This document shows, piece after piece, positions 500 through 55,608 of a DNA stretch of 64,000 nt. The position numbers were made by a program, and so were the translations under genes. The notes under the pieces were generated by a model, which ran no database searches, was not told where the DNA came from, and was given only the letters and a program-made list of their open reading frames with translations. This DNA is from Cenarchaeum sp. (GTDB lineage Archaea > Thermoproteota > Nitrososphaeria > Nitrososphaerales > Nitrosopumilaceae): the NCBI GenBank assembly GCA_965206845.1, contig OZ242221.1, positions 640,001 through 704,000 on the forward strand, given 5' to 3'. How positions within the stretch are numbered: position 1 is the first letter of the stretch; every line of letters begins with the position of its first letter.

Positions 500-549
500 G
501 GTACGATTGGTCATTGGTACACACCTAAATATGTTCCACCGATGGACCG

Positions 550-641
550 GTATAGACTCAGGTCCCGCTCGAACCTAGGCACGATTTTGCGAGACGCGAC
601 GCAGTTTTGTGTCTAGAAGGATCGCCGACCTGAGTACATAC
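550..641. mobile_element. 92-bp MITE, family A (diverged copy)
   Basis: Imperfect TIR GTATAGACTCAGGTC / GACCTGAGTACATAC and 8-bp TSD ATGGACCG (542-549, 642-649). Aligns without gaps to the reverse complement of the copies at 34422 and 55468. Confidence 0.85.
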
Positions 642-763
642 ATGGACCGCACGGCGCCATCCGCCGTCCGGGCCAGACAAGGAATCCTGCCAAACCCATG
701 CCCGAATGAAGAGGCGGCCGGCGCCATACCGCCCCGCTATCAAATATACTTAAATTATATCGG

Positions 764-1558
764 ATGGGTGTACCTGTATTGAGCACTGATCTTAGGCTGA
801 AGAAGTTGAGAGGATCAGGGGGCTATGTTATAGCAACCGTAGATGATCTCCAACAGGGAAAAGGAAACTTGGGCGGTCCGGATCTGTTCCTTGCTCCCAT
901 CGGCAGAATTGACACTTCCAGAATATCAAAATTCTTCTGCAACACATGCGAGAGCGAATACGACGGGGCCCCGGACATCAAGTATGAGAGTCCAAACGAG
1001 GAGGTAGCCGAGAATCTGATTCTGGCAGAGAAGGGGCAGTATATCTGCCAGACATGCAGTTCGACCCTGGCAGAGTACAGGGAGTTTAAGAAGAGCGACG
1101 AGGCGGCAGATGTCGGGGCTGCAAAACCGATAGAGGTGGCAGATACTGTTGCCAGCGAGGCTACAGAGGTGGCAGATATATCCATCATTGAGGATGCAGG
1201 ATCCGATACGATATCGGCAGAACTACCGGTTCCGGAAACGGATCCAGAGTCGCAGCCTGAGACTGGGGAGATCAGATCAATCATCGGCATGGCGATCTTT
1301 GACATGGATGCCGCAGGGATGGGAACCGTAAAACAGATAGGCATCGATGCCACACAGACCCTGACCCTGGTGGTAGAAGGGACCGACGGAACCAGACAAA
1401 TGATCGCATGGGATCGGGTCAGGAGCGTAGGCGACATTATCCTTCTAGGAGAGAAAGGCCCCGCCGCGGCGCCATCACAAGATCACGGTTGCCCGCAGTG
1501 CAAGTTCGAGAACAAGCCGGATTCAAAATTCTGCGAGCAGTGCGGACACGCATTCTGA
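764..1558 (+). CDS. Conserved thaumarchaeal zinc-ribbon / PRC-barrel-like protein
   Basis: CxxC pairs (CNTC/CQTC; CPQC/CEQC at the C-terminus) and a PRC-like segment (VRSVGDIILL). True start may be the TTG near 779. Confidence 0.75.
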   Translation: MGVPVLSTDLRLKKLRGSGGYVIATVDDLQQGKGNLGGPDLFLAPIGRIDTSRISKFFCNTCESEYDGAPDIKYESPNEEVAENLILAEKGQYICQTCSSTLAEYREFKKSDEAADVGAAKPIEVADTVASEATEVADISIIEDAGSDTISAELPVPETDPESQPETGEIRSIIGMAIFDMDAAGMGTVKQIGIDATQTLTLVVEGTDGTRQMIAWDRVRSVGDIILLGEKGPAAAPSQDHGCPQCKFENKPDSKFCEQCGHAF

Positions 1559-1639
1559 TTCCATAGGATCACGGCACTTTAGCGAACAGAGCATGTCACC
1601 AAACATATATCAAACAAGGAAAGCGACGGAAAAACACAT

Positions 1640-2356
1640 TTGGCAAAACAATCGATAGCAAGGAAAGCCATTAAAGACGTGGCCATAGTGGCCGTGGGCG
1701 TTTTGATCTTCTGGTTTGGACTCCAGTTGGTCTTTGGAACCGCAAACCCGTTTTATGTGGTATCCAGCGGAAGCATGGTTCCCGAACTGAATGTGTATGA
1801 CATTCTTGTCGTGCAGGCAAACGATCCGTTCGAATCGGTGCGGCTGGGCGACATAATAGTATTTGACCGGCCATCGGGCTCCGAAAGGGTAATTGTTCAC
1901 AGGGTAGTCTCGATAATAGACGAGGATCCGTATACTCTTAGAACCAAGGGCGATGCCAACCCCGCATCCATACCAGGGACGGACTTTCCGATAACCGCAG
2001 ACGAGTACCTCGGCACGGTGTCATACGTTATCCCGCAGGCAGGGTTTGTTACCCAGATATTTGCACCGCCGATAAACTACGTCCTGATTGCAGTGGTTCT
2101 GGGCTTGCTGATACTCAAGACTTTTAGAAGCCACAGGTCGGAGAGGGCGGATGTCGACCCGCCGGCAGTGGAGGACATGCCAGACGACGGCTCGTACACA
2201 GACGGGCCCTTCGACACAGACGAAGCCACTGCCACAGATGTGGGCAGTCCCGACTCCGAGCAGGCAGCCGCATCTGCCACGGACACGGACGAGGCGCCAC
2301 TGCCACAAGAGAGCGAACCAGAAGAAGGCTCCGATGCGAAGCAGGAGAAGGACTAG
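1640..2356 (+). CDS. Signal peptidase I (S26B, archaeal type) with acidic tail
   Basis: N-terminal TM helix and the motifs SGSMVP, VIVHRV, TKGDAN. Confidence 0.9.
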   Translation: MAKQSIARKAIKDVAIVAVGVLIFWFGLQLVFGTANPFYVVSSGSMVPELNVYDILVVQANDPFESVRLGDIIVFDRPSGSERVIVHRVVSIIDEDPYTLRTKGDANPASIPGTDFPITADEYLGTVSYVIPQAGFVTQIFAPPINYVLIAVVLGLLILKTFRSHRSERADVDPPAVEDMPDDGSYTDGPFDTDEATATDVGSPDSEQAAASATDTDEAPLPQESEPEEGSDAKQEKD

Positions 2357-2360
2357 AACC

Positions 2361-3866
2361 CTAAACGCCTGTAATCTTGAAGACGCGCTTGAAATAATCC
2401 GAAGGCTCGGCGGTATCCTCAAAATCGTTCTTTATTCCCGCCAGGTGCTTTGCCAGGTTCTTTTTGTACAGCATCTGCATCTGCCTCTGAATCTGAACTC
2501 TCTGCGCCTGCGGGGAGCCGGCGCCGTGCATGGACTCGGTAAGGTATCCGACGGCGTTTCGTCCCATCGTCATATTCTCAATCAGTCTCAGTATCCTCCG
2601 CCGGTTCTCTACATCCACGCCTTTTCGGCCGGCAAAGTATTTGTCAAGGAGTGGCCCTATCTCCGGATGTTTAAAGTCGTCATCCGACGGCAGTGTCACC
2701 ATGAGCCCTCCGGCAATATCCTGAGCCAGCCGCCCGATCTCGTACGGGAATCTTGTCACGTTGTGCTTGCATACCTGTGCCAGCATATCGTCGTTCATAT
2801 AGACGCCAGACTTCATCTTCTGGGACTGATACGACGATGCGATTCCTGCAGCAAAGATGGATTCGTTGAGGTGCGTCATCTCTATGAGCTTGTCCTTGAT
2901 GTGCGAGACCCTAGGCACGCCGTTATAGTCTGCAATGGTTCCTGCCGCGCCGATGAGGACATCGCCGAGTCCGGTCTTGCAGACATAGCTGCGCCGGTGA
3001 TAGCAGGTAAACCGCTCAATCAGCATCGAGGCAAACTCCCACTCGCCGAACATAAAGACATACTCCCATGGAATAAAGACCCTATCTAGTATGACCAAGG
3101 CCTCCTGGCCACTGTACTGTGCATTTCCCGCGTCAATGTCCCCGTTCTCCATGCTCCTAGTATCGCAGGACTGCCTGCCGTAGACATAGGTAATTCCCGG
3201 TGCATCCACCGGAAACGCTCCCACTATGGCGTAATCCCGGTCGTTAGCGGTAAGGCGGACTGTTGGCATTATGATAATCCAGTGAGAGTTAACGCATCCT
3301 GTCTGGTGCGCCTTGGCGCCCGAGACGTAGACGCCTCGCTCATCCTTGTCCACCACGCGTGTGTACAGGTCGGGATCCACCTGTTCCGAAGGACCCTTGC
3401 TACGATCCCCCTTTGGATCGGTCATCGCGCCGCCGATGACCAGGTTCTCCCTCTGAACCATTTTGATAAACTCCAGCAGCCTCGAATGGTAGTCTGTTCT
3501 GTGCTTTTCATCGATCTCAAATGTGGTCGAGTGTAACGAGTTCAGCGCGTCCATTCCCACACACCGCTGAAAGCACGTTCCGGTGTTCTGTCCCAGCTTC
3601 CGCTGCATCTTGTTCTGCATGACCAGATCGTTGGCGCTCTCGGCAATATGCAGAAACCTGTTTACCCTTGCCCCGCTGATCGAGGATTCGGCCGAGGCCA
3701 GCCCCTCCTCCCTTACGGCAAGATCAAACGTCTCTGCCACCGCATTGATGGATGGCTTGATCATTGGGTGCTCGACGGGATCCTCTACAAGGTCTCCAAA
3801 TAGGTACACCTTGAGTTTTCTGCCCCTCAGGCTGTTGATATAATCCTCCCCCGTGCGGATAACCAC
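2361..3866 (-). CDS. hcd: 4-hydroxybutyryl-CoA dehydratase (3HP/4HB cycle)
   Basis: CFQRCVGMD, AMTDPKGDR, HRRSYVCK and ESMHGAGS motifs. Confidence 0.93.
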   Translation of the reverse strand: MVIRTGEDYINSLRGRKLKVYLFGDLVEDPVEHPMIKPSINAVAETFDLAVREEGLASAESSISGARVNRFLHIAESANDLVMQNKMQRKLGQNTGTCFQRCVGMDALNSLHSTTFEIDEKHRTDYHSRLLEFIKMVQRENLVIGGAMTDPKGDRSKGPSEQVDPDLYTRVVDKDERGVYVSGAKAHQTGCVNSHWIIIMPTVRLTANDRDYAIVGAFPVDAPGITYVYGRQSCDTRSMENGDIDAGNAQYSGQEALVILDRVFIPWEYVFMFGEWEFASMLIERFTCYHRRSYVCKTGLGDVLIGAAGTIADYNGVPRVSHIKDKLIEMTHLNESIFAAGIASSYQSQKMKSGVYMNDDMLAQVCKHNVTRFPYEIGRLAQDIAGGLMVTLPSDDDFKHPEIGPLLDKYFAGRKGVDVENRRRILRLIENMTMGRNAVGYLTESMHGAGSPQAQRVQIQRQMQMLYKKNLAKHLAGIKNDFEDTAEPSDYFKRVFKITGV

Positions 3867-4108
3867 AGACTCTACTCCAAAGAACTTATATAAATACCAT
3901 AAATTCTGCCTAGGCGGATGGGCCGGATTTTTCCCCGCTTGAACGTGGATTTATACACTCCATCCAGTTTTCACATCGGCGCCATCCGAATGCCCTGATC
4001 CCGCATGCGGTCATGCCCTCCCTTCATTTTGGCATGGGCGCATACACACAAGCCGCAAGAGTCCTCACCTCTGGCTCAATGTAGACGGCCTCGGTGCTTC
4101 GGGCCGAT

Positions 4109-6208
4109 TCACTGAAGCCCGATCCGGACATCCAGAATCCGGCACCCCCGGCCTTCTTCCATTACCAGAACCGGGTTCATGTCCAGCTCCCTGATCTCCT
4201 CAAAGTCAGTCACAAGCTGCGAGAGCCTCTGGATGCACTCGGAGAGTTTGGGCAGATCCGACGGCTTTTCACCGCGCGCGCCCTCCAGCAGCTTCCTGGT
4301 CTTGATGGAGGCGATCATGTCGTCTGCCTCCCGGGCGGTAATCGGAGCCAGCTTGAATGTGACGTCCTTGAGTATCTCTACGTATATGCCGCCCATTCCC
4401 AGCATCAGAACGGGACCCATGCCGGGCTCGTGCTTGCAGCCGATGATGAGCTCCTTTCCGCCCTTTACCATCTCCACTACCAGACAGCCCATGATCTCGG
4501 CATCCTTGTTGTATTTTTTGCAGCTGGAGATTATCCTGGCAAAGGCCGCCCTTACCTCTTCCTCGTTCTTCAGGTTGACTGCCACCCCGCCCGCATCGGA
4601 CTTGTGAATTATCTGTGGGGACGCAACCTTTAGCACCACGGGGAACTTGATCCTACCAGCCATGCGGGCAGCCTCGTCTGCATTCCTTGCCAACCTGCTC
4701 TTCGGAAGGGGAAACCCGTATGCATTGAGTATCTGCTGCCCCTCTTCCTCCAGCAGGTTCTGCCTCCCTTCACGCCTTGCAGAGTCGAGAATCTTTCTCA
4801 CTTTTTTTGCGTTCACCTCAAACTTGGTGACCCTTCCCTGGGGCGTGTTTATCCACCGGGAGAATCTGAGCATGGCTCCAAGGGCCCGGACAGCCCCCTC
4901 TGCGTATGTGTAGTAGGGAACATCCCCGGCTGCAAGAATCTGCCGGTTCGTTATGCCCTCGTCCAAGCCCATCAGACTCGCAAGCATGGTCTTTTTGTGC
5001 TTCTTGGACATCTCCACTATGACCCTGGCCAGTCCGTCGTAGTCCAGGGTGCCTGACGGGGTGCACATTGTAATTACAGAGCCTACGTTCTCGTGTCGTA
5101 GCACATGCTCCAAAACCCCCCTGAACCGCTCAAAGTTGGCATCGCCCACTATGTCTACGGGGTTGCGGGAGCTTCCCCATGGCGGAATTACCCGGTCTAT
5201 CTCGGGCCTGATGGAATCGATCTTGGCCATCGCAATTCCCGTCTTGGAGCACGCGTCAGTAGATATGATTGCAGGTCCTCCTGCATTTGATACTATTGCC
5301 AGATCTCCGCCGGTAGGTAGCGGCTGCTTTGAGAAGGCGGTGGCATAGTCAAAGAGCTCCTCCATCGTATCCACCCGAATGGCTCCCGACTGCCGGAGAA
5401 GCGCGTCGTACAGCTCGTCTGAGCCCATCAAGGCTCCCGTATGCGACATGGCCGCCTTTGCCCCCTCGGCGCTACGGCCTGCCTTGAGCACCAGTACGGG
5501 TTTTTTGTGCTTCCGGGTGACACTCCTGCACACCTTGAGAAAGTCCTTGCCGTTGCCCACATCCTCTAGATACATGACTATCACCCGGGTCTGCTTGTGG
5601 GATGCCAGCATCTTGAGGACTGCGATCTCGTTTGTGGATGCCTTGTTTCCCAGGCTTATCACGGCGGAGAACCCTATGCCCTGGGCGCTGGCATCCTCGC
5701 ACAGGGCAGCGCATATGGCTCCGCTCTGGGAGACCAGGGCGATGTGGCCCGTCTTGGGCGTGATCTTCAGAAAGGTGGAATTCATCATGGTGTTCGGGTC
5801 AAGGTTCATGACTCCGAGGCAGTTGGGACCGATCATCTCCATCTTGTGCTTCCTTACGATGTCCTTGATCTGCTGCTCAAGCCTGGCTCCCTCTTCGTCC
5901 ACCTCCTTGAAGCCCGCTGTAATTACCACAACGCCCTTGATCTTCTTCCTGCCACACTCCTCTAGAACCTGTGGCACGAGCGTATTCCTAATTACAATAA
6001 CTGCTAGGCTGATGGGATCCGGGACATCCAGAACCGACTTGTACGCCTTTTTGTCAAATACCGTGGACCGAGAGGGACTTATGGGATACACAGGCCCCTG
6101 AAAGCCGTTCATTATGTTTGAGGTGATTGTCCTGCCTACCGTACCCTCCTTATCGGAGGCGCCGATAACCGCTATAGACTTTGGGGACAACAGGACGGAC
6201 TCGGCCAT
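4109..6208 (-). CDS. ADP-forming acyl-CoA synthetase, probably 4-hydroxybutyryl-CoA synthetase
   Basis: CoA-binding SIAVIGAS, GPNCLG, SQSGA and SHTG motifs, plus ATP-grasp IHKSD. Adjacent to hcd as in Nitrosopumilus. Confidence 0.88.
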   Translation of the reverse strand: MAESVLLSPKSIAVIGASDKEGTVGRTITSNIMNGFQGPVYPISPSRSTVFDKKAYKSVLDVPDPISLAVIVIRNTLVPQVLEECGRKKIKGVVVITAGFKEVDEEGARLEQQIKDIVRKHKMEMIGPNCLGVMNLDPNTMMNSTFLKITPKTGHIALVSQSGAICAALCEDASAQGIGFSAVISLGNKASTNEIAVLKMLASHKQTRVIVMYLEDVGNGKDFLKVCRSVTRKHKKPVLVLKAGRSAEGAKAAMSHTGALMGSDELYDALLRQSGAIRVDTMEELFDYATAFSKQPLPTGGDLAIVSNAGGPAIISTDACSKTGIAMAKIDSIRPEIDRVIPPWGSSRNPVDIVGDANFERFRGVLEHVLRHENVGSVITMCTPSGTLDYDGLARVIVEMSKKHKKTMLASLMGLDEGITNRQILAAGDVPYYTYAEGAVRALGAMLRFSRWINTPQGRVTKFEVNAKKVRKILDSARREGRQNLLEEEGQQILNAYGFPLPKSRLARNADEAARMAGRIKFPVVLKVASPQIIHKSDAGGVAVNLKNEEEVRAAFARIISSCKKYNKDAEIMGCLVVEMVKGGKELIIGCKHEPGMGPVLMLGMGGIYVEILKDVTFKLAPITAREADDMIASIKTRKLLEGARGEKPSDLPKLSECIQRLSQLVTDFEEIRELDMNPVLVMEEGRGCRILDVRIGLQ

Positions 6209-6255
6209 CTTTGATGGTGTAAATGGCAGTTATCTAATAAAGCTATTCAATCTGC

Positions 6256-6346
6256 TAGTTTGTTGCACAACTCCGAATCGCAGGCACAGAGTGCCTGCTC
6301 CTCGGCACCCATCTAGGCACGTTTGAGAAGATTGTGCAACAAACTA
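6256..6346. mobile_element. 91-bp MITE, family B
   Basis: Perfect 15-bp TIR TAGTTTGTTGCACAA / TTGTGCAACAAACTA and 8-bp TSD CAATCTGC (6248-6255, 6347-6354). Confidence 0.92.
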
Positions 6347-6528
6347 CAATCTGCCCGTCATGGGCTGTCTGCCATATCGAACTGGACGCAAGGAACCGCC
6401 CGGACGCACGCCCTTGCACGAAATGTGGGGAGGGCATGGCCGCGTACCTGCCGGGGCCCTGCTCACGCCTACGGCTCACAGCAGGGGCAAGGCTGGTGCG
6501 TCCGCCTCGCATGCACAAATCCACAAGC

Positions 6529-6813
6529 TCAGTCTAGGGAGATCTTGAGAAATATCAGCAGCGCCACAAGCTCTGCCACTCCGACTCCCACCATATATGG
6601 AAATATATCGTGTGAGAAGAGCATCTCTACAGAAAAGTATGCCGTGGCGCTGATCGCGTTGTGCAGGAACAGCATTCCGGCAAACACGATCAGTCCTAAT
6701 GGAAGCTGGGCCCTTGTTTTGGTGTACATCTTTCCAAATGTAGCCACTAGGATGCCAAGTATGATCATGTTGATGATTGACACGATGGAAAGGATGGCAG
6801 ATGTAGGCTCCAT
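6529..6813 (-). CDS. Small 3-TM membrane protein
   Basis: Three hydrophobic helices. Follows the wHTH regulator, a common archaeal pairing. Confidence 0.75.
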   Translation of the reverse strand: MEPTSAILSIVSIINMIILGILVATFGKMYTKTRAQLPLGLIVFAGMLFLHNAISATAYFSVEMLFSHDIFPYMVGVGVAELVALLIFLKISLD

Positions 6814-6836
6814 TCACTAGACAACCCCTGCAAGAT

Positions 6837-7139
6837 TTATTTACTTTTTTCCAGTTTTTCTACAATTTCCTCCAGGGATTTCATGTTGTTCTCCAGCAGC
6901 GGCGAGATAAAGTACAGGACGCCATATTTTTCTCCCTCCTTGGAGACCAGGTTGTTCTTTTCTAGTACACGTACGTGGTGCTGGATTGCCTTGTAGTCCA
7001 GATTCAGTTTCTCGGCCAGCTGGTTGATATTCATAGGAACGTCCGTGATCGCATTGATTATCCGCAGTCTGTTCAAACCGCCTCTAGAGCCAGCAAAGAC
7101 AAACCAAAGGAGTCTTTTGACATAGGGGTCGTTGGCCAT
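6837..7139 (-). CDS. ArsR-like winged-helix transcriptional regulator
   Basis: GSRGGLNRLRII...NINQLA..LNLDYKAIQHH pattern. Confidence 0.85.
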   Translation of the reverse strand: MANDPYVKRLLWFVFAGSRGGLNRLRIINAITDVPMNINQLAEKLNLDYKAIQHHVRVLEKNNLVSKEGEKYGVLYFISPLLENNMKSLEEIVEKLEKSK

Positions 7140-7266
7140 TATGTACAGATGACTACTTCGAAACGTTACTTAAACCATTTAGAAAAGGCGTGGGCCCGGT
7201 CAGGGACGCAGACGGCGCGCCCCAGACACAATACCTATCTATAGAAACGGCGCCAAGGCATTTCAG

Positions 7267-8655
7267 ATGACGTACGACTCGGTGATCGTTGGCTCGCATG
7301 TGGTGCTCTCATCCGGGATGGTAGACAGAAACATCGTGATGGACGAGGGCAGGATAGTCTCAGTTACAAACGATGTGCCGTCATGCGATCACAAGATCAA
7401 TGGCGTGGGCATGGTATCGATTCCCGGGCTCATCGATCCGCACGTTCACTACGGGGTCTACTCGCCTATAGAGGAGGCTGGCAGGACCGAATCCCGCGCC
7501 GCGGCAGTAGGCGGGGTAACCACCATGATGAGGATGCTCCGACACGGCTCGTCCTACAGGGAAACACTGCAGTCGCACCTTGACGCAAGCGCAAAGAACC
7601 ACCATGTGGACTATGCAGTCCATGCATCCATATTTAATCAGGGGCAGGTGGACGAGATGGACTATATCCGGCAGAAGGGAGTCACGTCGTTTAAGATCTA
7701 CATGAACCTGGGCTCGGATATCGGACACGTGTACATGGACATGGTTCCCGGATCGCAGGCGCTCCATGGGGAGCATGTGGAGGTGAGTGACCGGTTGGTA
7801 GAGGAGACTGTCAAAAAGGCGGCCCTGCTTGGGTGTCCTGTGTGCGTGCATGCCGAGGATTACGAGCAGTGCTCACGTGGAATCCGGGAGGCTCGGATGA
7901 GAAACCAGGACGGCCTTGCCGCATGGTCGTCAAGTCGCTCGCCGGGATCTGAGGCAAAGGCGATCAGGACGGTATCCGCGCTGGCAAGAAAGTACGGATG
8001 CGCGCTGTATCTTGTCCACATAGGATCCAGATCTGCGCTGGGGCAGATCGCGGCAGAGCGCCTGGCCGGCACCAAAATCTCTGTCGAGACATGCCCCCAC
8101 TACCTTGCCCTCTCCTATGAGAAGCAGGATGGCTACCTGGCAAAGGTGATGCCGCCCATCCGGTCGCAGGACGATGTTGGCGCTGTATGGCAAGCGGTAC
8201 GCCGGGGAGCCGTCGACACGATCGGAACGGATCACGTGGCCAACCGGCTGAGTTTGAAGTTGGGGGGTGATGACGTCTGGGGGGCGCTGGCAGGATTTCC
8301 CAGCATAGGGACAGCCCTGCCGCTCTTGCTCTCCGAAGGAGTCAACAGGGGAAGGATCAGCTTGGATCATCTGGTCAGGATCTGCAGTCTCAACGCAGCC
8401 AGGATCTTCGCCATGTACCCAAAAAAGGGAGTGCTGGAACCTGGATCTGATGCGGACATCACCATGATCGATCTAAAGAAGGAGGCCAGGGTTACAAGCG
8501 ATCTCTTTGGCGGGTTCTCGGACTATTCCGTATACGAGGGGTGGAAACTGAAGGGATGGCCACAAAAAACGATCGTCCGCGGGAGTGTGGTGGTAGACGA
8601 CTTCGAGGTTATCGGAAGGCCCGGCTGGGGCAGGATGGTTCCAAGGCAGGCATAA
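7267..8655 (+). CDS. pyrC: Dihydroorotase / cyclic amidohydrolase family protein
   Basis: PGLIDPHVH, HAED, ETCPHYL and GTDH motifs. Hydantoinase or allantoinase specificity cannot be excluded. Confidence 0.75.
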   Translation: MTYDSVIVGSHVVLSSGMVDRNIVMDEGRIVSVTNDVPSCDHKINGVGMVSIPGLIDPHVHYGVYSPIEEAGRTESRAAAVGGVTTMMRMLRHGSSYRETLQSHLDASAKNHHVDYAVHASIFNQGQVDEMDYIRQKGVTSFKIYMNLGSDIGHVYMDMVPGSQALHGEHVEVSDRLVEETVKKAALLGCPVCVHAEDYEQCSRGIREARMRNQDGLAAWSSSRSPGSEAKAIRTVSALARKYGCALYLVHIGSRSALGQIAAERLAGTKISVETCPHYLALSYEKQDGYLAKVMPPIRSQDDVGAVWQAVRRGAVDTIGTDHVANRLSLKLGGDDVWGALAGFPSIGTALPLLLSEGVNRGRISLDHLVRICSLNAARIFAMYPKKGVLEPGSDADITMIDLKKEARVTSDLFGGFSDYSVYEGWKLKGWPQKTIVRGSVVVDDFEVIGRPGWGRMVPRQA

Positions 8656-8700
8656 GCCGCAGGATGGCACCTGCCCCGGTGTGTATACCGTAGACTCTGA

Positions 8701-10392: not shown

Positions 10393-10406
10393 ATTGGTCG
10401 CACCAC

Positions 10407-10637: not shown

Positions 10638-10682
10638 TTACTTTACCTACAGCTTGTAGTTATGGAGGATTATATTAAAATA

Positions 10683-34374: not shown

Positions 34375-34421
34375 AGATTTTTCAGACAGTCTGTGGTTAA
34401 ATATCTTATGGATCGTTGGTA

Positions 34422-34513
34422 GTACATACTCACGCCCATGATGCACCTAGTCGTAAAAACACGCGGCAGTGTGCAAAACTATGCCTAGCTTTGATCTGGA
34501 CCTGAGTATGTAC
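34422..34513. mobile_element. 92-bp MITE, family A
   Basis: Perfect 11-bp TIR GTACATACTCA and 8-bp TSD CGTTGGTA. 91/92 identical to the copy at 55468. Confidence 0.95.
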
Positions 34514-34724
34514 CGTTGGTAGGCACAGGAATCCTCCCGCATGCGTGCCTGAATTGGGCGTCTGACGCCTGTAGTACCGCTCTCCGGATTCTGGCGCCCT
34601 GCGGCAAAGGGACTGCAGGGCAAGCCGTCGCATGCACGGACGGACCGGACGCCATACTTTCAGCTACATGTTAAATATTCGATCTAAAAGGTGTATATGG
34701 CTATCTCAAATGAGACTGGCTAGT

Positions 34725-34798
34725 GGGCCGGTCGTCTAGACTGGTAGGATACGCCCTTGGCATGGGTGAGATCGAGGGTTCAAATCCCTCCCGGTCCA
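34725..34798 (+). tRNA. tRNA-Ala(GGC)
   Basis: Anticodon arm CGCCC-TTGGCAT-GGGTG and a G3:U70 pair. Confidence 0.96.
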
Positions 34799-34841
34799 TA
34801 CTTTTCAAGTAACTTTTGTAGGCTCCACGCACACAATAGGC

Positions 34842-43430: not shown

Positions 43431-43454
43431 AGGCGCCAGGACACATCCCGGGCG

Positions 43455-46334: not shown

Positions 46335-46609
46335 TTGATTTCTGTCAGGCACTGCGCAAGCATGCTTTGAGCCCATCAATAACTTTTGCCGCGCCATCGT
46401 GGCGGCAGGCCGCGCGGGAACTCTGGCACCGAGCCCCGCGCCGTCTTTCGGATACGGAGTCGGATCGCGCATGCCCAAACCGGCGGGAGGCTGCCGGATC
46501 GCGCCAGCCGGGAGCCCGGGGCACGGCCAGTCGGGTCACCGTAGGGCGCCGGCCGCCGCCTCCCGCTCCACACACAGTTGGATCCCCTGCTGACACTCCG
46601 GTCGGCCTC

Positions 46610-47158: not shown

Positions 47159-47209
47159 GCCGCACCTCCGGACTCCACAGAAATATCTTTTTGCACCTGC
47201 TCGGCTGTG

Positions 47210-48245
47210 TGTAGTATATGGAAGTTATGTCCGCTAGTCATTGGAGCCTGCCTCCATCCATTTTGGGTCTTTTTTCCTGATCGCTTCTGTTGCCTTTTTG
47301 GTAAAGAACGCCTTGAGTGGGGTCTCATAGTTGTCGATGTCCAACGAAAAGTGTAGTCTTCTCTCGTTGTAGTACTTGATATAACTGGACAGGCTCTCGT
47401 AGTGAAAGATCTCCCCTATGCTTCTGTGGAACCGTTCCAGCTTGCCGTTTGCCTGCGGGTGGTACGGTCTGGAGTTGATCAGCTCGATGCCCCTGTCCAG
47501 GAGCTCGCTCTCAAACGCGGTCGGCTGCCAGGATCTTTTTGGCTCCTTTCTGCGAACACCGACAAAACAGGACCCGTTGTCCGAGAGTATCGTGGCCGGG
47601 GTTCCGACACTTTTAATTGCCTGCCGGAGCACTGCCACGGCGTTCTCCGATGTGGCCTCCGTGAACAGGGCTGCCCCGGTCACGCGCCTGGAAGCATCGT
47701 CAAGAAACGTTATCAAATTGAGTCCTCTGAAGCGTGGATCCTTCATTATGTGCCAGTCCGTATGCCACATGGAGTTGGAGTGCCTCCTCTCGTAGCGTAT
47801 CCATTTTCTCTTTCTGGACTTTACAGCCGACGGGGTCACCAGTCCGTTCCCCTTCATTATCCTGCATATGCTGCTGTAGCTTATAACGTGGTCTTTCCGC
47901 AGGCGCCTCGCCATGCGCAGCACGCCGGCCGGCTCCCGCTTGTGCTCCTCAAGCACCATCCGTATCTCGTCCGTGGTGGGCTGCACTGGCTTCCTTCCCG
48001 GGCGACGCGGCACATGCGGGGTGCCCGTCCTGCAGAACCCGGCCCACAGCCTCCTGACATGCTGGGCGTCACACCCAGTTCTGATGCCATCGTGGACGCG
48101 CTTTTGCCCTTCTTGCGCCGTCTTATCGCGTATCGTATGGCATCCGCCGTCAGTCGCTTTACCACTTCTTTTTTGATCGGTAAGGGGCAAAGTAATCCTT
48201 TACGCTACGCCTGATCTTAGGCGGACATAATTGTCGTACAATAGA
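47210..48245 (-). mobile_element. IS481-family element, degenerate
   Basis: 25-bp imperfect TIR (TGTAG...TTATGTCCGC, about 18/25). TSD not intact. Confidence 0.75.
47234..48165 (-). pseudogene. IS481/rve transposase, frameshifted near 48065
   Basis: The HTH frame (..ASELGVTP) shifts to QHVRRLW. WHTD, SDNG and PQANGKLER motifs follow. Confidence 0.85.
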
Positions 48246-48248
48246 GCT

Positions 48249-48287
48249 TGGTGTAATTTTCTTGGAACGAACTTTGGCGTGTCGCTA
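48249..48287 (-). repeat. IS630-type end relic
   Basis: Reverse complement of TAGCGACACGCCAAAGTTCGTTCCAAGAAAA, matching 37027, with a TA flank. Confidence 0.75.
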
Positions 48288-48329
48288 TAGTTCCATCACC
48301 CGCGTTTTACGAAGAACCTCATTGCCTGT

Positions 48330-48539
48330 TTAACTGCCAGATGGCCCCTTACCTCTCTTGCCAAATTTCATCTTTATGGCAATAGCTGGTATTACAAAGA
48401 GTGCCATCAGAGCCACAAAGGTGAGAAAAGTATGAGCACCCCTTACACCATCGATCAGAGCAACAACCACTCCAACAGAGAGCAGCAAGATAGCCAGCAA
48501 AATAAGAAAAACAGCTCTCGGACTCATCCTTTTAACCAT
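48330..48539 (-). CDS. Small 2-TM membrane protein (low GC)
   Basis: Two hydrophobic helices and a basic tail. Confidence 0.6.
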   Translation of the reverse strand: MVKRMSPRAVFLILLAILLLSVGVVVALIDGVRGAHTFLTFVALMALFVIPAIAIKMKFGKRGKGPSGS

Positions 48540-48851
48540 CCTTCCTACGATTCGCCTGTTATTCTGTTTTGTTATTTTTTGGGGCTGTCAAGATGCAGGT
48601 GCATGGATCAAGGTGTTGAACCGGGTGCATGACGGAGTCCTTTCGGGCCACGCGGGAGAGCGAACATGACGGTGTATACCGCCACATCTCCAGGGCGCAA
48701 AGCCCGCATTACTTTGCTAGCTGAGCAGGGTGTCGATCCAGCTAGGGTGGAGAAATAGTAAGAATGCTGCCGGACGCTTCAACCGCACTTACCGCATCCA
48801 GGCATTCCTCCGGCATCCTCAATCACATCTGTGACAGCTCGTCCGATCTGC

Positions 48852-50315
48852 CTATCCAACCAGCTGGCTTACGGCAGACGAGAGATCTGCCAGGGCACCT
48901 GCCACGTGGTCGCTGCGCCTGCGCACCTCCTCCTGGTGGACCTTGACGCGTCCGAGCCTGTCCTGTATCATGCGCTTCTGCTCTGCAAACCCGGAAGATC
49001 CCTCGGATATCCTGTCTTCCAGTGACGACGATACGGTTGTCGATGCTGCGATCTGGAGTATGGCCTGCGGATCTGCGCCCGTGCCGTCTACTGCCTCCCG
49101 GATCTCCTGCAGGGACAGACCAGATAGATCTTTCTTTAGCGCCACTGCCTTCTGCACCAGCAGGCCCGTCACCCTGTGGGCAAGTCTGAAGGGCATTCCC
49201 TGCAGTACCATCTTCTCTGCAACGTCCAGTGCGACCAGGTGGCCCCCCCTTGCGGCCCTCTGCATGCCCTCTTCATTGACCGTCATGCCGGTGAGCGCAG
49301 ACCCCACCAGAATTACGGCGTGCGTGGCAGCATCTGATGAGCTCCACACCCGGGACTTGATCTGCTGCAGGTCGCGCCCGTACCCGGTGGCGAGCCCCTT
49401 GGTGGACGCAAGGACGGTCACCAGGTTCCCGATGACCTCGGATGCCTTTGCCCTTGTGAGCTCCAGCATGTCCGGGTTCTTCTTCTGGGGCATAATGCTT
49501 GACGGGGACGCAGACTCGTCTGACAGCTCGATAAAGGAGAACTCCGAGGAGGACCATATCACCAGATCCTCAGACAGTCGGCTCAGGCCCGTCATCAGGA
49601 CTGCCAGGGCCGCCACATACTCGGCCGCAAAGTCCCTGGAGCTGGTGGCGTCAATCGAGTTCTCCACCAGCCCGTCAAATCCCAGCAGCTCCGCGGTACG
49701 CCTCCTGTCTATGCGGATGCTGGTTCCGCCCACCGGCCCGGCGCCCAGCGGGCTTTTGTTGATCCTGCCGTATACGGAGTGCAGCCTGTCCATGTCCCGG
49801 AGCAGCACATCTGCCTGCGCCAGAAGGTAATGGGACAGGGTTCCTGCCTGAGCCTGCTGCAGGTGCGTGTACAGCGGCATTATGCTCCTCTGGTGCCTCT
49901 CCGCCAACGAGAGCAGGGAATCTACGGTATCGGCCAGGCAGGCGCACAGCGTATTGATGTCATCCCGGATCTTCATCCGCATGTCAAGGGCCACCTGGTC
50001 GTTCCGGGAGCGGGCGGTGTGCATCTTGCCGCCGCTCTGCATTCCTGCCTTTTTGATTACTGCCGCCTCGATATACTCGTGGATGTCCTCTGCGCCGGTA
50101 TCGCCATCCGTGCCGACGCCCTTCAGGCCCTCCAGCGCCGCAAGAATTCCTGCCGCCTCGTTCCTGGATATGATGCCGCCCTCGCAGAGCATCACCACAT
50201 GCGCCTGGCTTCCAAGGATGTCGTACAGTGCGATCGCCTCGTCCTCGGACATTGAAGAGACATATCTGAGAATCACATCATCCAGACTGCCTGCAAGTCG
50301 GGAACGATACACCAC
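48852..50315 (-). CDS. argH: Argininosuccinate lyase
   Basis: EDIH, HTARSRNDQ, YTHLQQAQ and SSIMPQKKNPD motifs. Confidence 0.96.
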   Translation of the reverse strand: MVYRSRLAGSLDDVILRYVSSMSEDEAIALYDILGSQAHVVMLCEGGIISRNEAAGILAALEGLKGVGTDGDTGAEDIHEYIEAAVIKKAGMQSGGKMHTARSRNDQVALDMRMKIRDDINTLCACLADTVDSLLSLAERHQRSIMPLYTHLQQAQAGTLSHYLLAQADVLLRDMDRLHSVYGRINKSPLGAGPVGGTSIRIDRRRTAELLGFDGLVENSIDATSSRDFAAEYVAALAVLMTGLSRLSEDLVIWSSSEFSFIELSDESASPSSIMPQKKNPDMLELTRAKASEVIGNLVTVLASTKGLATGYGRDLQQIKSRVWSSSDAATHAVILVGSALTGMTVNEEGMQRAARGGHLVALDVAEKMVLQGMPFRLAHRVTGLLVQKAVALKKDLSGLSLQEIREAVDGTGADPQAILQIAASTTVSSSLEDRISEGSSGFAEQKRMIQDRLGRVKVHQEEVRRRSDHVAGALADLSSAVSQLVG

Positions 50316-50362
50316 TTAACCTCTAAAATGGTTTTATATATAGCATATACGCCCTGACGCGC

Positions 50363-50683
50363 ATGTCACAGGAGACAAGACAGCTGAAGATGAAGATCTT
50401 CGACGAGCTCTCCAAGATCGTCGACCCCGAGATAAACACCCCGATCACAGATCTGGAGCTCATCGACGAGGTCGACATAGACGGATCCAGCATCAAGGTT
50501 GACCTGCACCTCACCAGCCCGTTCTGCCCGGCGGTGTTCGGATTTAAGATATGCCAGGACGTCCACGACAACCTGCTGGGCGTCGATGGGATCGACGATG
50601 TTCAGGTAAACGTGTCAAACCACTTTATGGCAGAGCAGATAAACAACCAGGTAAACAACAGCCCGAATCCGAAGAAGAAGTAA
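50363..50683 (+). CDS. DUF59/SufT-like Fe-S assembly protein
   Basis: IVDPEI and LTSPFCP motifs. Confidence 0.88.
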   Translation: MSQETRQLKMKIFDELSKIVDPEINTPITDLELIDEVDIDGSSIKVDLHLTSPFCPAVFGFKICQDVHDNLLGVDGIDDVQVNVSNHFMAEQINNQVNNSPNPKKK

Positions 50684-50686
50684 ACC

Positions 50687-51472
50687 CTATCTGAATCCCA
50701 AAAGGTATCCCCGAAGCAGCTGTATTCCCATTGCCGGATCAACCCCCTTGGGGCACACCTGGCTGCACGAGCCTGCAAAGTGGCACCGCCATATACCGTG
50801 GGAGTCGTCTATGATCCTCAGCCGCTGATCCTTTCCCTTGTCGCGGTTGTCCGCCACGTAGCGGTACGCCTGCGCAAGCGCCTGCGGCCCGACAAACGCA
50901 GAATCCGTGGTCATTGTGGGGCACGCCGAGTTGCACAGGCCGCACTTGATGCATCCTGCAAACTGCACAAACTTTTCGTACTCCTCAGGAGTCTGCAGGG
51001 TCTCCTTTGCGCCCTGCGGCAGTTCGGCATCATCAGATATGACATAGGGCTTGATCTTTTTGTGGCTGGCAAAGAGCCTGTCAAAGCCCACCGTCAGATC
51101 CCGGATTATGGGAAAGTTGTTCATGGGCTCCACCGTAACCACGTCGGAGTTCAGCTCGTCCACCTTGGTAAAGCACGCAAGGCGCGGCCTGCCGTTTATC
51201 ACCATGCCGCACGAGCCGCATGTGGCCTGCCTGCACGAGTACCTCACCGCCACCGAGTGATCCAGGTACTTCTTTACCTCCAGTATGGCATCAAGTACCG
51301 TGGTCCACTTCTCCACATGCACGTCATACTCTGCAAAGCTCTTCTTGGAGTCGACGCTGGGATTGTACCTTGCTATGCGCAACACGACGACGCGCGAGGA
51401 GGAAGACGCCGCTTCTGACCTGGCTGCCGGATGAGCCACCGGTGACCGCGTCGGCACTATGGCTACGTTCAT
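50687..51472 (-). CDS. sdhB: Succinate dehydrogenase Fe-S subunit
   Basis: SCRQATCGSC, CIKCGLCNSACP and CHFAGSCSQVCP motifs. Confidence 0.95.
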   Translation of the reverse strand: MNVAIVPTRSPVAHPAARSEAASSSSRVVVLRIARYNPSVDSKKSFAEYDVHVEKWTTVLDAILEVKKYLDHSVAVRYSCRQATCGSCGMVINGRPRLACFTKVDELNSDVVTVEPMNNFPIIRDLTVGFDRLFASHKKIKPYVISDDAELPQGAKETLQTPEEYEKFVQFAGCIKCGLCNSACPTMTTDSAFVGPQALAQAYRYVADNRDKGKDQRLRIIDDSHGIWRCHFAGSCSQVCPKGVDPAMGIQLLRGYLLGFR

Positions 51473-51828
51473 CCGACCATCCCCATGCTTGCCAGAAGGA
51501 TTGTCCTGGAGCCATACGCAATAACTGCGATCATTGCAGCCACGCACCCGTACGAGACGGTCTTCTCATACGCACGCCCCTGCTTGAGCTCCAACAGAAC
51601 CACGCGCAGCCCGTTGAAGCCGTGCACCGACAGCAGTATCAGTATGATCTCAAGCATTCCCGCATAGGGCAGGAACTCATAGTTTGCAATCACGCTCTCA
51701 TACGAGAGCGACTCGGAGAATCCCTGGGTCATCCGAAACAGTATGTGTACCGCAACCAGGGCAACGGACGCCAATGCAGTGCCATAGTGTATCTTCATTA
51801 TGTGACTCTCTCTCATCTCACTCACCAA
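51469..51828 (-). CDS. sdhD: Succinate dehydrogenase membrane anchor
   Basis: TM helices, HGFNGLRV motif and operon position. Confidence 0.85.
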   Translation of the reverse strand: MVSEMRESHIMKIHYGTALASVALVAVHILFRMTQGFSESLSYESVIANYEFLPYAGMLEIILILLSVHGFNGLRVVLLELKQGRAYEKTVSYGCVAAMIAVIAYGSRTILLASMGMVG

Positions 51829-52249
51829 ACATTACCGTCAGGCCGTACAGCATCGCTACTGCGGCCAGCACTATGGCCGAGTATATCATAATCTTGTGGC
51901 GCGCGTTCTGGGACTGCGGGACGTACGGATAGTCAGGCCTTCCCGGCCTGCCGACGCCGACGCCGCCGTGGCCCAGCATGACCCTGATTCCGTTCACCGT
52001 GTGAAAGACGCACATTCCTATCACCACGGCCAGGACGACATGCCCCTCGGTGCTCTGCGTCAGCTCCAGAAACTCTTCCCAGCCGGCCTTCCCCTGCAGT
52101 ATGTTGCTGGTCTCGTATATGTGGGCCACAAAGTAGGCCAGCAGCCCCAGACCGGTCAGCCTCATCAGCCAGTAGGCAACCCGCTCGATGCCGTAGCGGC
52201 CGGGGTTTGCCATCCCCCTAATTCCCTCCCTGTTCTCGTCTACAGTCAT
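51818..52249 (-). CDS. sdhC: Succinate dehydrogenase cytochrome b subunit
   Basis: RLTG and FHTVNGIR motifs. Confidence 0.88.
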   Translation of the reverse strand: MTVDENREGIRGMANPGRYGIERVAYWLMRLTGLGLLAYFVAHIYETSNILQGKAGWEEFLELTQSTEGHVVLAVVIGMCVFHTVNGIRVMLGHGGVGVGRPGRPDYPYVPQSQNARHKIMIYSAIVLAAVAMLYGLTVMFGE

Positions 52250-53959
52250 CTAGTATCTTCTCTCCACGGGTTTGTAATTAGTTATCGTAACCGGATGCGT
52301 GTCCATTACAGGCTCCGGACCGTGGTACGCAAGCGTGTGGTGTAAAAAGTTGGCATCGTCACGCACGGGATAGTCTGTTCTGGCATGGCTTCCCCGGGAC
52401 TCGCGCCTGTTGATGGCGCCCACGAGCACCACCTCCGCTACCCGGAACATCGAGTCCAGTTCCATCACGTTGACAAAGTTAGTGTTGTACTCCTTGGCAG
52501 AGTCTTCCACATGCTTCCAGGCGCTCCCCCGCAGGAAGCGAAGCGTCCGCAGCCCCTCTGTCAGGTCCCTCTCGTTGCGGTATACGTACGCCCTGTCGTT
52601 CATCATGTCGGTGAGGGCCTGCCTTACCTCGTATGGGTTTGCGTCCCCCCTTCCGCGGAAGATCCCGTCGTAGATGCGCTTCTCCTCCTCTGCAACCATG
52701 TGACCCGGCCAGGAGCTAGACGGCCTGCACTGCATGGCATAGTCTGCTGCCATCCTGCCGGTAATGTTTCCCCACACTATGCATTCTGAGGTGGAGTTTG
52801 CCCCCAGCCGGTTGGCTCCGTGGGCGCTGTTGCATGCCGCCTCGCCGGCCGCCCAGACGCCGTGCATCTCGGCTCGGCCGTCGATGTCTGTGTGTATCCC
52901 GCCCATCATATAGTGACACACGGGCCGCACGTCCAGCAGATCCTTTGAGGGATCCAGTCCGGAGAACTTGATTGATATCTCGCGGATTCCGCCCAGCTTC
53001 TCCTTGATCACCTCGTCGCCAATATGCCTCAGGTCAAGCTTCATGCAGTCAACCCCTGTCTCGTGCTTGAAGCCCCGACCCTCGTTTATCTCAGTCATTA
53101 TAGAACGGGACACTATATCCCTGGGAGCCAGCTCCATCTTCTTTGCCGCATACCTGCTCATAAAGCGCTCATTCTGGCTGTTGAGCAGGTGGCCGCCCTC
53201 GCCACGCGCACCCTCGGTGATCAGGATTCCCGACGGCATGATTCCCGTGGGGTGAAACTGCACGAACTCCATGTCCTTTAGCGCCATACCTGCGCGAAGC
53301 GCCATGTCGAGTCCGTCAGGCGTGGAGGAGTGTGCGTATGTCGAGAAGCTGTAGAGGCGTCCCGCCCCGCCGGTTGCGATTATCAGTGCCTTGGCCTTGA
53401 TGCCGTAAAAGGTTCCGTTGGACAGCTCGATGGCCGTAACCCCCATGAACTTTTGGCCGTCGTGAATTATGCTGGTAACAAACCACTCGTTGAGGTACTC
53501 TATGTTGTCGTACTTTTGGCATGTGTCATAGAGCGTCTGCATCTCAAAGAGCCCTACCTTGTCAGAGGCATAGGTGGCCCGCGGAAAGCTGTACCCCCCA
53601 AAGGCGCGCTGGTCAACCCTTCCGTCCTTGCGCCGCGACCACGGCATTCCCCAGTGTTCCAGCCTGTAGATCTCCTCTGGCATCAAGCGGCACAGCCTCT
53701 CTGCCACGTCCTGATCCGCAAGAAAGTCGCTTCCCTTTACCGTGTCATATATGTGGGACTCGATGCTGTCCCCAGCGTCCTCAAAGAGCACTGCGGCCGT
53801 ACCCCCCTCTGCGGAGACCGAATGGGATCTCATTACCTGAACCTTTGATATTACGGCGATTCTGATACCCGGGCTCCTCTGGGCTGCAGAGATTGCCGCG
53901 CGCAGACCGGCTATGCCGGAGCCGCAGATGAGCAGATCATAGCCCATAGTTTCTGCCAT
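52250..53959 (-). CDS. sdhA: Succinate dehydrogenase flavoprotein
   Basis: GSGIAG, RSHSVSAEGG, QFHPT and HGANRLG motifs. Start reset to ATG 53959. Confidence 0.96.
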   Translation of the reverse strand: MAETMGYDLLICGSGIAGLRAAISAAQRSPGIRIAVISKVQVMRSHSVSAEGGTAAVLFEDAGDSIESHIYDTVKGSDFLADQDVAERLCRLMPEEIYRLEHWGMPWSRRKDGRVDQRAFGGYSFPRATYASDKVGLFEMQTLYDTCQKYDNIEYLNEWFVTSIIHDGQKFMGVTAIELSNGTFYGIKAKALIIATGGAGRLYSFSTYAHSSTPDGLDMALRAGMALKDMEFVQFHPTGIMPSGILITEGARGEGGHLLNSQNERFMSRYAAKKMELAPRDIVSRSIMTEINEGRGFKHETGVDCMKLDLRHIGDEVIKEKLGGIREISIKFSGLDPSKDLLDVRPVCHYMMGGIHTDIDGRAEMHGVWAAGEAACNSAHGANRLGANSTSECIVWGNITGRMAADYAMQCRPSSSWPGHMVAEEEKRIYDGIFRGRGDANPYEVRQALTDMMNDRAYVYRNERDLTEGLRTLRFLRGSAWKHVEDSAKEYNTNFVNVMELDSMFRVAEVVLVGAINRRESRGSHARTDYPVRDDANFLHHTLAYHGPEPVMDTHPVTITNYKPVERRY

Positions 53960-54011
53960 TACAGTCAAGGCTCCAATTATGGCGGTTAAAAATGTAGTAA
54001 GCCGACCGTTC

Positions 54012-54155
54012 CTGAGACATGATCCGCAATTAAGAATCGTGCCTTCGATGCCCATAATCTTACAGATGTGTGCTCCAAAGCATGCAACTTTCGTATGATT
54101 ATGCCAAAGATCGTGCTCTAATGTGCCTGCGTGCTAATTACGAATCACATCTCTG
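54012..54155. mobile_element. 144-bp MITE sharing TIRs with the IS at 34974
   Basis: Ends CTGAGACATGATCCGCAATTA and TAATTACGAATCACATCTCTG. Confidence 0.82.
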
Positions 54156-54291
54156 CCCCACAGGGACTGTGGGTCTTGCCCCTTCACGGCCGCCCTCCTC
54201 TGACTGGGAACCGGATCTTCTCAGGGATCGCCTGCGCCTGCAGGCATGGAACCGGTTCGCACATATATCGCGCATGGATCCAGCAGATGCG

Positions 54292-55314
54292 ATGGGACGC
54301 AGGCGGCGCATGAAGCTGCGAAAGGGTATGTACCAAGCCGGGGGGGCAGGTCGGCCGGACGCCGGCACGAAGGATGGCCCCACAGGGCTGGATTCGGGCA
54401 AGAGACGGAGCGGCCGGCCTGCTGGCACGCTACCGCAGAAGAGACCCATGCCCGGTAATGCCGGCCTCGCGGAGCGGTTCGGCATGGAAGGCGAGCCGGA
54501 TCTGCACAAGTACGACAAGCTGACTAATTTTGTGAAGGGGATCAAACAGGCTATGAATCAGAAGGGTTTTGACAAGAACAGGTACATCAGCTCGCTCCGC
54601 GCCAGCGGCATTGGTGAGGAGGCGATTGGCCTGGTTCAGGGAATAATAGAAGTGAGCGCGGACGACAAAATCTCCAGATACACGGCCATGCTTGACACCA
54701 TGAACAGGGGTAGGCACGAAGAGGCACTGGAGATGATCGAGGAGTTCGAACGGCGATACGGCGTTTTTGACTTTACAGGCAGGTACGACGCCCTGACGAA
54801 CTTGGGAAGACTGGAAGAGGCGCTGTCCCTGTGTGACGGGATACTGGACTCCGAGCCGACCCCGTACGCAGTCTGCTGCAAGTCAGACATACTGCGCGAG
54901 CTGGGCCGGGTGCAGGAACAGGTGGAGTTGTACGATCGATGGGAAAGAGAGTTTCCGGGGGATCCTGACATACTCGCGGGCCGCGCCAGGGTACTGGTCA
55001 GCGTGGGCAATCTGGACGAAGCCGAGGAGATGGCCAAAGAGGCCCTGAGGCTTGAGGAGATCACGATTCCCGCATACCTTGCCCTGGGGGAGATTCTGGT
55101 TTCTAGGGGAGACACCGCCGGAGCCATCAAGATACTCAACAGGGCGCTGGACATAGACGAAAACGAGGACGAAGTCTACGTCCGCAAGGCGGAGATCCTG
55201 CTGGACGCAGGAGAGTATGAAAAGGCCGCACTCTGCTGTGAACAGCGGCTAGGAGTGGTTCCTGGAATAAGAAGGCTCAGAGAGATCAGGTATAGAGCAG
55301 AGGCGGCGCTTTGA
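54292..55314 (+). CDS. TPR-repeat protein
   Basis: Repeated LG..EEA and A...L..AL TPR patterns. The track start at 54070 lies inside the MITE, whereas ATG 54292 follows a CATATAT box. Confidence 0.8.
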   Translation: MGRRRRMKLRKGMYQAGGAGRPDAGTKDGPTGLDSGKRRSGRPAGTLPQKRPMPGNAGLAERFGMEGEPDLHKYDKLTNFVKGIKQAMNQKGFDKNRYISSLRASGIGEEAIGLVQGIIEVSADDKISRYTAMLDTMNRGRHEEALEMIEEFERRYGVFDFTGRYDALTNLGRLEEALSLCDGILDSEPTPYAVCCKSDILRELGRVQEQVELYDRWEREFPGDPDILAGRARVLVSVGNLDEAEEMAKEALRLEEITIPAYLALGEILVSRGDTAGAIKILNRALDIDENEDEVYVRKAEILLDAGEYEKAALCCEQRLGVVPGIRRLREIRYRAEAAL

Positions 55315-55467
55315 TGCCAGGCAGAGCCGTCGGTGGCACCAGAATCCGGCCGCAGCGGCCATTCAGATATCCCGGCTGAATGGCATTTCCAGAACGGCCG
55401 TGCCGCCTGCGCTGCCATACAGGGACGGCCGTGAAACCCGCAGGCCGCCAGACAGGCACCCCGGCTG

Positions 55468-55559
55468 GTACATACTCACGCCCATGATGCACCTAGTCGT
55501 AAAAACACGCGGCAGTGTGCAAAACTATGCCTAGCTTTGATCTGGACCTGAGGATGTAC
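55468..55559. mobile_element. 92-bp MITE, family A
   Basis: 91/92 identical to 34422-34513, with 9-bp TSD CCCCGGCTG (55459-55467, 55560-55568). Confidence 0.95.
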
Positions 55560-55608
55560 CCCCGGCTGCTTGGCAAGGTATTAATGGGTTCCAGTAAGGG
55601 AACTCTTC

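Follow-up and report, generated by a model that had tools for sequence, protein, structure and literature searches.

Insertion sites of IS66-type and other mobile elements are referenced to the core promoter in ammonia-oxidising archaea

When several copies of a mobile element lie at one and the same distance from a promoter, has that distance been set by the promoter itself? The question is raised by a 64,000-nt stretch of the genome of Cenarchaeum sp. (GenBank assembly GCA_965206845.1, contig OZ242221.1, positions 640,001 to 704,000 of the forward strand; the whole stretch is called the window below), in which three 92-bp elements each lie just outside a core promoter, consisting of the TFB recognition element (BRE) and the TATA box. 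The three copies are members of a family of 92-bp non-autonomous elements (MITEs, miniature transposable elements with inverted repeats). The pattern that they form is a real, promoter-referenced target selection, in which the insertion point is measured from the core promoter as with a ruler, and chance is excluded as its cause.

On re-reading of the window sequence, the three elements were located at the positions that had been given in the initial annotation, and outward from the target site duplication (TSD) of each copy the described 6 nt, followed by the aligned BRE/TATA motif, were recognized (Table 1). The names trxA, fpr and thi4 that had been assigned to the adjacent genes agreed with the Pfam matches (thioredoxin, ferredoxin-NADP reductase-type oxidoreductase and Thi4, respectively). 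The distance from the box to the start codon had to be corrected from 27-30 nt to 23-26 nt after the 10-nt motif (47-50 nt from the element edge), and of the two ATGs at offsets 35 and 50, the latter begins trxA. The three copies form one family but not one subfamily: copies 2 and 3 share 99% identity, and copy 1 is a member of another subfamily (approximately 72% identity).

Table 1. Mobile elements, promoter boxes and adjacent genes in the window (positions are those of the window)
Feature	Position	Strand	Details
MITE copy 1, subfamily A, 92 bp	550..641	+	TSD ATGGACCG, 8 bp, at 542-549 and 642-649; ends GTATAGACTCAGGTCC...GACCTGAGTACATAC
MITE copy 2, subfamily B, 92 bp	34422..34513	-	TSD CGTTGGTA at 34414-34421 and 34514-34521
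MITE copy 3, subfamily B, 92 bp	55468..55559	-	TSD CCCCGGCTG at 55459-55467 and 55560-55568
BRE/TATA box of thioredoxin gene	524..535	-	AACATATTTAGG on minus strand; 6 nt (536-541) past copy 1 TSD
BRE/TATA box of oxidoreductase gene	34396..34407	-	AAGATATTTAAC on minus strand; 6 nt past copy 2 TSD; matrix score 13.2
BRE/TATA box of thi4	55575..55586	+	AAGGTATTAATG; 6 nt past copy 3 TSD; matrix score 8.1
Thioredoxin gene, 109 aa	170..499	-	PF00085, E=5.5e-30; ATG 50 nt from copy 1 edge
Ferredoxin-NADP reductase-type FAD/NAD oxidoreductase, 281 aa	33529..34374	-	PF00970 and PF00175; GTG start 47 nt from copy 2 edge
Thi4 thiazole synthase gene, 267 aa	55609..56412	+	PF01946, E=1e-62; ATG 49 nt from copy 3 edge

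The genome from which the window was taken is closed (1,649,950 bp, 57% G+C), and a profile search of the whole of it yielded 13 full copies and one half copy of the 92-bp MITE, which fall into three subfamilies. The element is small, non-coding and multicopy, with terminal inverted repeats of approximately 15-16 nt (GTACAYACTCAGGTC / GACCTGAGTRYGTAC). TSDs, mostly direct repeats of 8-9 bp with variable sequence (one is an imperfect 8-mer), were present in 11 of the 13 full copies and absent from two; as had been noted for the window, their sequences show no relationship to one another. Besides the MITEs, the spacers hold 87-522 nt of other non-coding DNA, and no copy was found between convergent genes according to our heuristic gene calls, in line with the promoter-linked placement that had been suspected. 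The target genes, named by reading their translations, include those for ribosomal protein L3, an RNA polymerase subunit H-like protein, cyclophilin, a Rieske protein and a CDC48-type ATPase; they are unrelated housekeeping genes, together with a tRNA gene.

For the promoter model, genes were called with a simple home-made open reading frame (ORF) finder based on codon usage; the 1,448 genes obtained cover 80% of the genome and are hence an incomplete set. In the A+T profile upstream of 964 starts, A/T content rose to a sharp peak between -30 and -23, and A stood out at -34/-33. A position weight matrix (PWM) was built with 387 aligned sites from 947 upstream regions, from which regions within 400 nt of a MITE were excluded, and it has the pattern A-34 A-33 nn tTWWWWWw. 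The boxes beside the elements occupy this usual promoter position, -34 to -23 from start codons, and their initial designation as BRE/TATA is thereby supported. Such a constant spacing between BRE/TATA and start codon would be the signature of mostly leaderless genes, and the starts of these genes would be their transcription starts. In 10 of the 13 full MITE copies, the best box firing away from the element (PWM score of at least 5.9) had an offset of 13-16 nt from the edge, and for the half copy this offset was 15 nt; 5.1% of 328,214 non-coding positions have such a box, which gives a binomial P=3e-11. Copy 1 of the window is outside these 10 matches, as the PWM penalises the G at -24 of the thioredoxin box (offset 14 by eye). 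For 9 MITE copies, the distance from the edge to the start of a long ORF is 47-52 nt, and for a tenth, tRNA-Val starts at 47 nt (10/13).

An autonomous insertion sequence (IS) with MITE-type ends (GTAYRCACTCAGGTCC), the existence of which had been presumed from the window, was found to be an IS66-family element. As remnants of this parent, the genome of the window holds only a 994-bp deletion derivative (1364870-1365863), which has subfamily-B ends and encodes an N-terminal transposase fragment of approximately 180 aa, and a solo end at 996381, which is preceded by a C-terminal transposase fragment. Both fragments match the NCBIfam IS66 model NF033517 weakly, at the expected N- and C-terminal positions (E=0.0017 and 0.052, the second query being a translation made by eye); the N-terminal fragment gave no match in Pfam. 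When it was searched against 301 genomes of the same taxonomic family, matches were obtained in 30, this genome included. In genome G106, the partner IS is 1,671 bp long, is present in 11 near-identical copies and has the ends of the MITE (GTATACACTCAGGTCC). Its 510-aa transposase matches PF03050 above the cut-off (E=1.8e-23) and the NCBIfam IS66 model with 141 bits, below the cut-off of 180; there is one long ORF only on the transposase strand and no accessory gene in the element. Intact partners (1.65-1.69 kb, GTATRCACTCAGGTCC ends) occur in G106, G088 and G282, related IS in G088, G282 and G075, and related MITEs also in G282. The transposase family carries conserved DDE and CWxH motifs. 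No names were attached to the 32 database relatives, the transposase alignment found no solved structure when it was run as a profile against the PDB (0 matches), and BLAST of the MITE against 60 relatives gave only one 25-nt match (E=0.004). On these sequence comparisons, the MITEs are best explained as having been mobilised by a single-ORF IS66-family transposase that would make target duplications of 8-9 bp.

The IS66 family is defined by an 8-bp TSD and GTAA-type termini, and the traits of its single-ORF, ISBst12-like group are those given by ISfinder. The present elements share with that group the PF03050 domain, one ORF of 504-587 aa, an element length of 1.65-2.13 kb, a TSD of 8-9 bp and termini that begin with GTA; they differ in an N-terminal region without a match to the Pfam IS66 zipper or zinc-finger models. 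Of the family definition, the TSD length is seen here (8-9 bp), and the termini read GTAY or GTAT where the definition has GTAA. The accessory tnpA and tnpB genes of canonical IS66 are absent, which fits the single-ORF subgroup. Another IS66-family element of the same genome (1114230-1116230) was ruled out as the partner of the MITE, since its ends are different and no similarity to the N-terminal fragment was detectable; it is approximately 2 kb long, its inverted ends (37 nt) contain GTAACTGTTTTGG, and its transposase gene has an in-frame TAG. In G282, which belongs to another genus, MITE-like relatives are found at L051 (approximately 7037-7130) and L054 (approximately 1830-1924), and in L054 the TSD is again followed by 6 nt and AGAGTATTTATAG.

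The positioning of the insertion relative to BRE/TATA, with a jitter of about 1 bp, was seen not only in the additional MITE copies but also in the full-length IS of four other genomes. The same PWM was applied to them, a box of at least 5.9 being sought at 12-17 nt from either edge, with all flank positions as the null. Such a box was present in 9/11 copies in G106 (null fraction 0.082, P=8e-9), 8/11 in G088 (0.017, P=1e-12), 7/8 in G282 (0.036, P=6e-10) and 9/11 in G075 (0.007, P=3e-18); for the two G075 misses, an ORF starts at 48 nt and a box can be recognised by eye. For a distant IS66 relative in the AT-rich G297, the best box was at TSD+6 to +8 in 4/9 copies. In a pooled alignment of 54 copies, registered on the insertion point only, with the side chosen by the PWM, positions 20-24 are 93-96% A/T and positions 14-15 are 57-63% A, and there is no conservation in the TSD and the 6-nt spacer. 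The offset distribution was narrow, as the three window copies had led one to expect: the best box within 40 nt lay at TSD+5 to +8 in 31/54 copies, with the mode at +6 (17 copies), the rest being 11 copies without a box and 12 with the best box elsewhere. Among the best boxes of the IS66 lineage, +2 occurs once, and +3 and +4 do not occur. The orientation of the element relative to the box also varies, as had been observed in the window (by hand tallies, 6:5 among the MITEs, and 3:6 and 4:4 in two of the IS sets).

Other mobile elements of these genomes were used as controls. Two IS5-family elements, diverged from each other, have the -34 column of the box 1-4 nt past the TSD: a 1,256-bp element of G106 with a 9-bp TSD (9/10 copies, P=6e-10) and a 1,354-bp element of G282 with an 8-bp TSD (8/10, P=1.5e-10). 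For an rve-type IS of G088 (403-aa ORF), the distance from the edge to the best box is 17-18 nt (TSD+2 to 3) in 7/10 copies, with P below 1e-10 in a hand calculation with a wider-window null; the TSD of this IS, approximately 15 bp, is unusually long. In the IS5-family and rve-type elements, the -34 column is thus at TSD+2 to 3, which is 3-4 bp closer to the BRE than in the IS66 lineage. An IS630-like element of G075 has 0/10 copies with a box within 45 nt, and a repeat of approximately 145 bp in the genome of the window, with 32 copies, has a box at offset 12-17 in 1/32 and any box within 30 nt in 2/32. One promoter of G088 (C1, approximately 1,889,700-1,891,200) has been taken by both an IS66-type copy (L047) and an rve-type copy (L125), each at its own canonical offset. 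L125 is situated on the box side of L047, and the first 4 nt of the IS66 terminus form part of the L125 TSD; thus, L125 was inserted second and pushed L047 away from the box. The box scored for L047 is the end of the rve element, and the ancestral site conforms by eye. The single cognate transposase that had been envisaged for the window is therefore too narrow a view, since the IS5-family and rve-type elements use the same landmark with offsets of their own, and this sharing of the landmark at different offsets suggests that elements dock generally at the promoter as such, be it bound or bare.

Two explanations without targeting were weighed against these data. Insertion might be random, or merely AT-biased, with purifying selection leaving only those copies that lie just upstream of an intact core promoter; the genomes are gene-dense, insertions in promoters or genes would be harmful, and the age of most MITE copies has allowed a divergence into three subfamilies. 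However, the offsets stay within approximately 2 bp despite the other non-coding DNA available in the spacers, and many IS copies are 99-100% identical, hence recent insertions, and are already at the same offset. Elements of other kinds survive elsewhere in the same genomes (the IS630-like element and the ~145-bp repeat), and the IS5-family and rve-type elements are tolerated 3-4 bp closer to the BRE, where the IS66 lineage almost never sits, so that the IS66 peak is not a pile-up at the edge of what a promoter tolerates. On these four grounds, selection alone does not fit, and we regard it as very improbable. In the second explanation, the element would have been kept for a benefit that its terminal sequence brings to the neighbouring promoter, such as an upstream binding site, so that positive selection for a regulatory module would be seen; as both ends are alike, the promoter would face one and the same sequence, equally far away, whichever way the element is oriented. 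We find this hardly credible, because IS lineages with differing termini (GTATAC.., GTATGC.., GTATGG.. and GTACACACTTACC..) and the unrelated IS5-family and rve-type ends behave alike, a huge pool of random insertions would be needed for selection to act on, and the target genes are not related to one another.

With targeting itself established, the remaining matter is what the transposase recognises. We propose that the staggered cut would be placed so that 6 bp (range 5-8) separate the 8-9-bp duplication from the BRE 'AA' downstream of it, and that the duplication would thereby come to lie at approximately -48 to -41 from the start codon of apparently leaderless genes. Insertion would proceed in either orientation and would leave BRE, TATA and start site intact, the outcome being a safe haven in a gene-dense genome. 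The landmark would be the promoter in its bent state, with TBP/TFB in place, and the transposase-DNA complex would dock against it. We infer that TBP/TFB, rather than bare DNA, is being read: the target logo is the promoter logo, in that it is degenerate for A versus T, includes the BRE 'AA' and has no positions of its own, and three unrelated DDE families share the landmark, and for these reasons the bound complex is favoured over the bare DNA. That the landmark is the occupied, bent promoter and not a sequence read base by base by the transposase has, in our judgment, about an even chance of being correct.

Several points weigh against the occupied promoter as the landmark, or against the regularity on which it is based. 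Three to four of the 13 MITE copies do not conform: the copy at 1282142 has neither box nor TSD; that at 715261 has a shifted box and lies at the 3' end of an ORF with no gene within 348 nt downstream (Rfam gave no match downstream of this copy or of the half copy); and that at 561901 has a box with an unclear start codon. The offset windows and the PWM threshold were set after the data had been seen, the gene starts rest on the home-made ORF caller, and the RNA contigs described below are unable to define a 5' end. Other points bear on the alternative that targeting is the same, but that the transposase or target-capture complex reads the BRE/TATA DNA directly, by sensing at one helical turn from the cut a segment that is rich in A/T, bendable and narrow in its groove, with no host proteins involved. 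The 'boxless' copies keep weak, partial AT-rich stretches at the canonical position (positions 18-26), and one of them (L042), with long ORFs running out of both flanks, probably lies inside a gene, so that sequence could suffice. The proximal cuts of the IS5-family and rve-type elements, at approximately -37/-36, would overlap bound TFB, as they lie in the region that it would cover according to footprint data. Transposases of the IS4/IS5 type, moreover, are DDE enzymes that prefer bendable AT-rich flanks. On the other hand, direct reading would require that three unrelated transposases each copy the degenerate specificity of TBP and TFB, including the 'AA' at -34/-33, and contribute no positions beyond it, and the landmark is one-sided whereas transpososomes are two-fold symmetric. 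A gene start also follows at promoter distance after 8/10 targeted boxes (9 with the tRNA) as compared with 27-42% of non-coding look-alikes, a comparison that is confounded by reverse images of real promoters and on which we do not lean. Direct reading of the DNA is a serious possibility for us, though on the doubtful side.

Returning to the promoter occupied by TBP/TFB, a wider reading would make it a general docking platform for DDE transposases in ammonia-oxidising archaea, used by at least three unrelated families (IS66, IS5 and rve-type) at family-specific, bp-precise distances upstream of the BRE; it would be a prokaryotic counterpart of Ty3/TFIIIB and a repeatedly evolved safe haven. 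We put this forward tentatively, at slightly less than an even chance. In yeast, Ty3 is positioned by TFIIIB, and in Dictyostelium TRE5-A inserts approximately 48 bp upstream of tRNA genes. A fixed distance to the site of the initiation complex was likewise found here (peak at TSD+6 relative to the -34 column), and the systems have in common a bp-defined distance from the site of a TBP-containing initiation complex, an intact gene and the safe-haven logic. They differ in that Ty3 and TRE5-A, being retrotransposons, go to Pol III genes and that experiments have demonstrated the binding, whereas here the elements are DDE insertion sequences, cut-and-paste or copy-paste, the contact is inferred, the targets are general archaeal promoters and insertion takes place at the upstream BRE edge, not at the start site. 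In Tn7, the dedicated DNA-binding selector TnsD directs insertion to one conserved site, attTn7, in one orientation; the fixed distance to one side of a recognised landmark that is itself spared is the same, but the present elements have hundreds of degenerate sites at their disposal, insert in both orientations and carry no accessory gene. IS231A and IS903 (IS4/IS5-family) choose their targets depending on the flanks, with symmetric, statistical preferences; sequence outside the duplicated bases influences the choice and AT-rich bendable flanks are favoured as in the present case, where, in contrast, the landmark is one-sided, is a promoter and has a fixed spacing.

A literature search yielded no target preference described for IS66, and we know of none. 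In the full-text literature, most subscription journals being beyond the reach of the search, and in the accessible text of one review on MITEs, no promoter-referenced IS insertion in archaea was described. No earlier description of promoter-guided 'safe landing' in prokaryotes was found, and the comparison above suggests that it is a variant of landmark-directed transposition. Integration beside the initiation complex is a classic strategy of eukaryotic retrotransposons, and a bp-precise equivalent among archaeal IS would tie transposition to the TBP/TFB machinery and would explain how dozens of copies are tolerated in the IS-rich genomes of this family. The positions of IS and MITEs would then serve as free promoter markers, and a transposase with predictable, promoter-sparing insertion would be an attractive genetic tool for ammonia-oxidising archaea, which to our knowledge still lack one. 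The choice between bound and bare promoter can be tested directly in vitro.

At thi4, RNA contigs from four sponge metatranscriptome runs of one study cover the gene from 10-34 nt inside it onward; none of the contigs of these runs covers the thi4 box or the MITE, and the uncovered parts prove nothing. One low-depth contig joins window position 55454 to 55564 and skips 109 nt (the 92-nt MITE, the 9-nt TSD copy and 8 nt). Since it skips MITE copy 3, an allele without the element exists; the contig is from a sponge metatranscriptome, in which DNA carry-over is possible.

MITE copies also occur between divergent promoters. Copy 2 of the window is at the canonical distance only from the oxidoreductase promoter; on its other side, a tRNA-Ala gene (34724-34799) lies 200 nt past the copy and is preceded by a TATA-like box (GTTAAATATT). 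The copy at 1001374-1001464, which has no TSD, lies between two divergent boxes, both at the canonical offset (15 and 14 nt), and is flanked by genes for a helicase-like and a Rieske-type protein.

Of the control elements, two IS630-like copies of G075 (L135 and L137) lie within an IS66-type transposase gene, and their flanks encode part of the transposase. The ~145-bp repeat is found at approximately 54011-54155 of the window and at 31 further places of the genome, the 32 copies being 93-99% identical to one another; it has GAGACATGATCC...ATCACATCTC as ends, bordered by C-T/T-G or C-A/A-G, it is not associated with promoter boxes, and one copy overlaps the start of the IS66 C-terminal remnant (approximately 995.6-995.8 kb).

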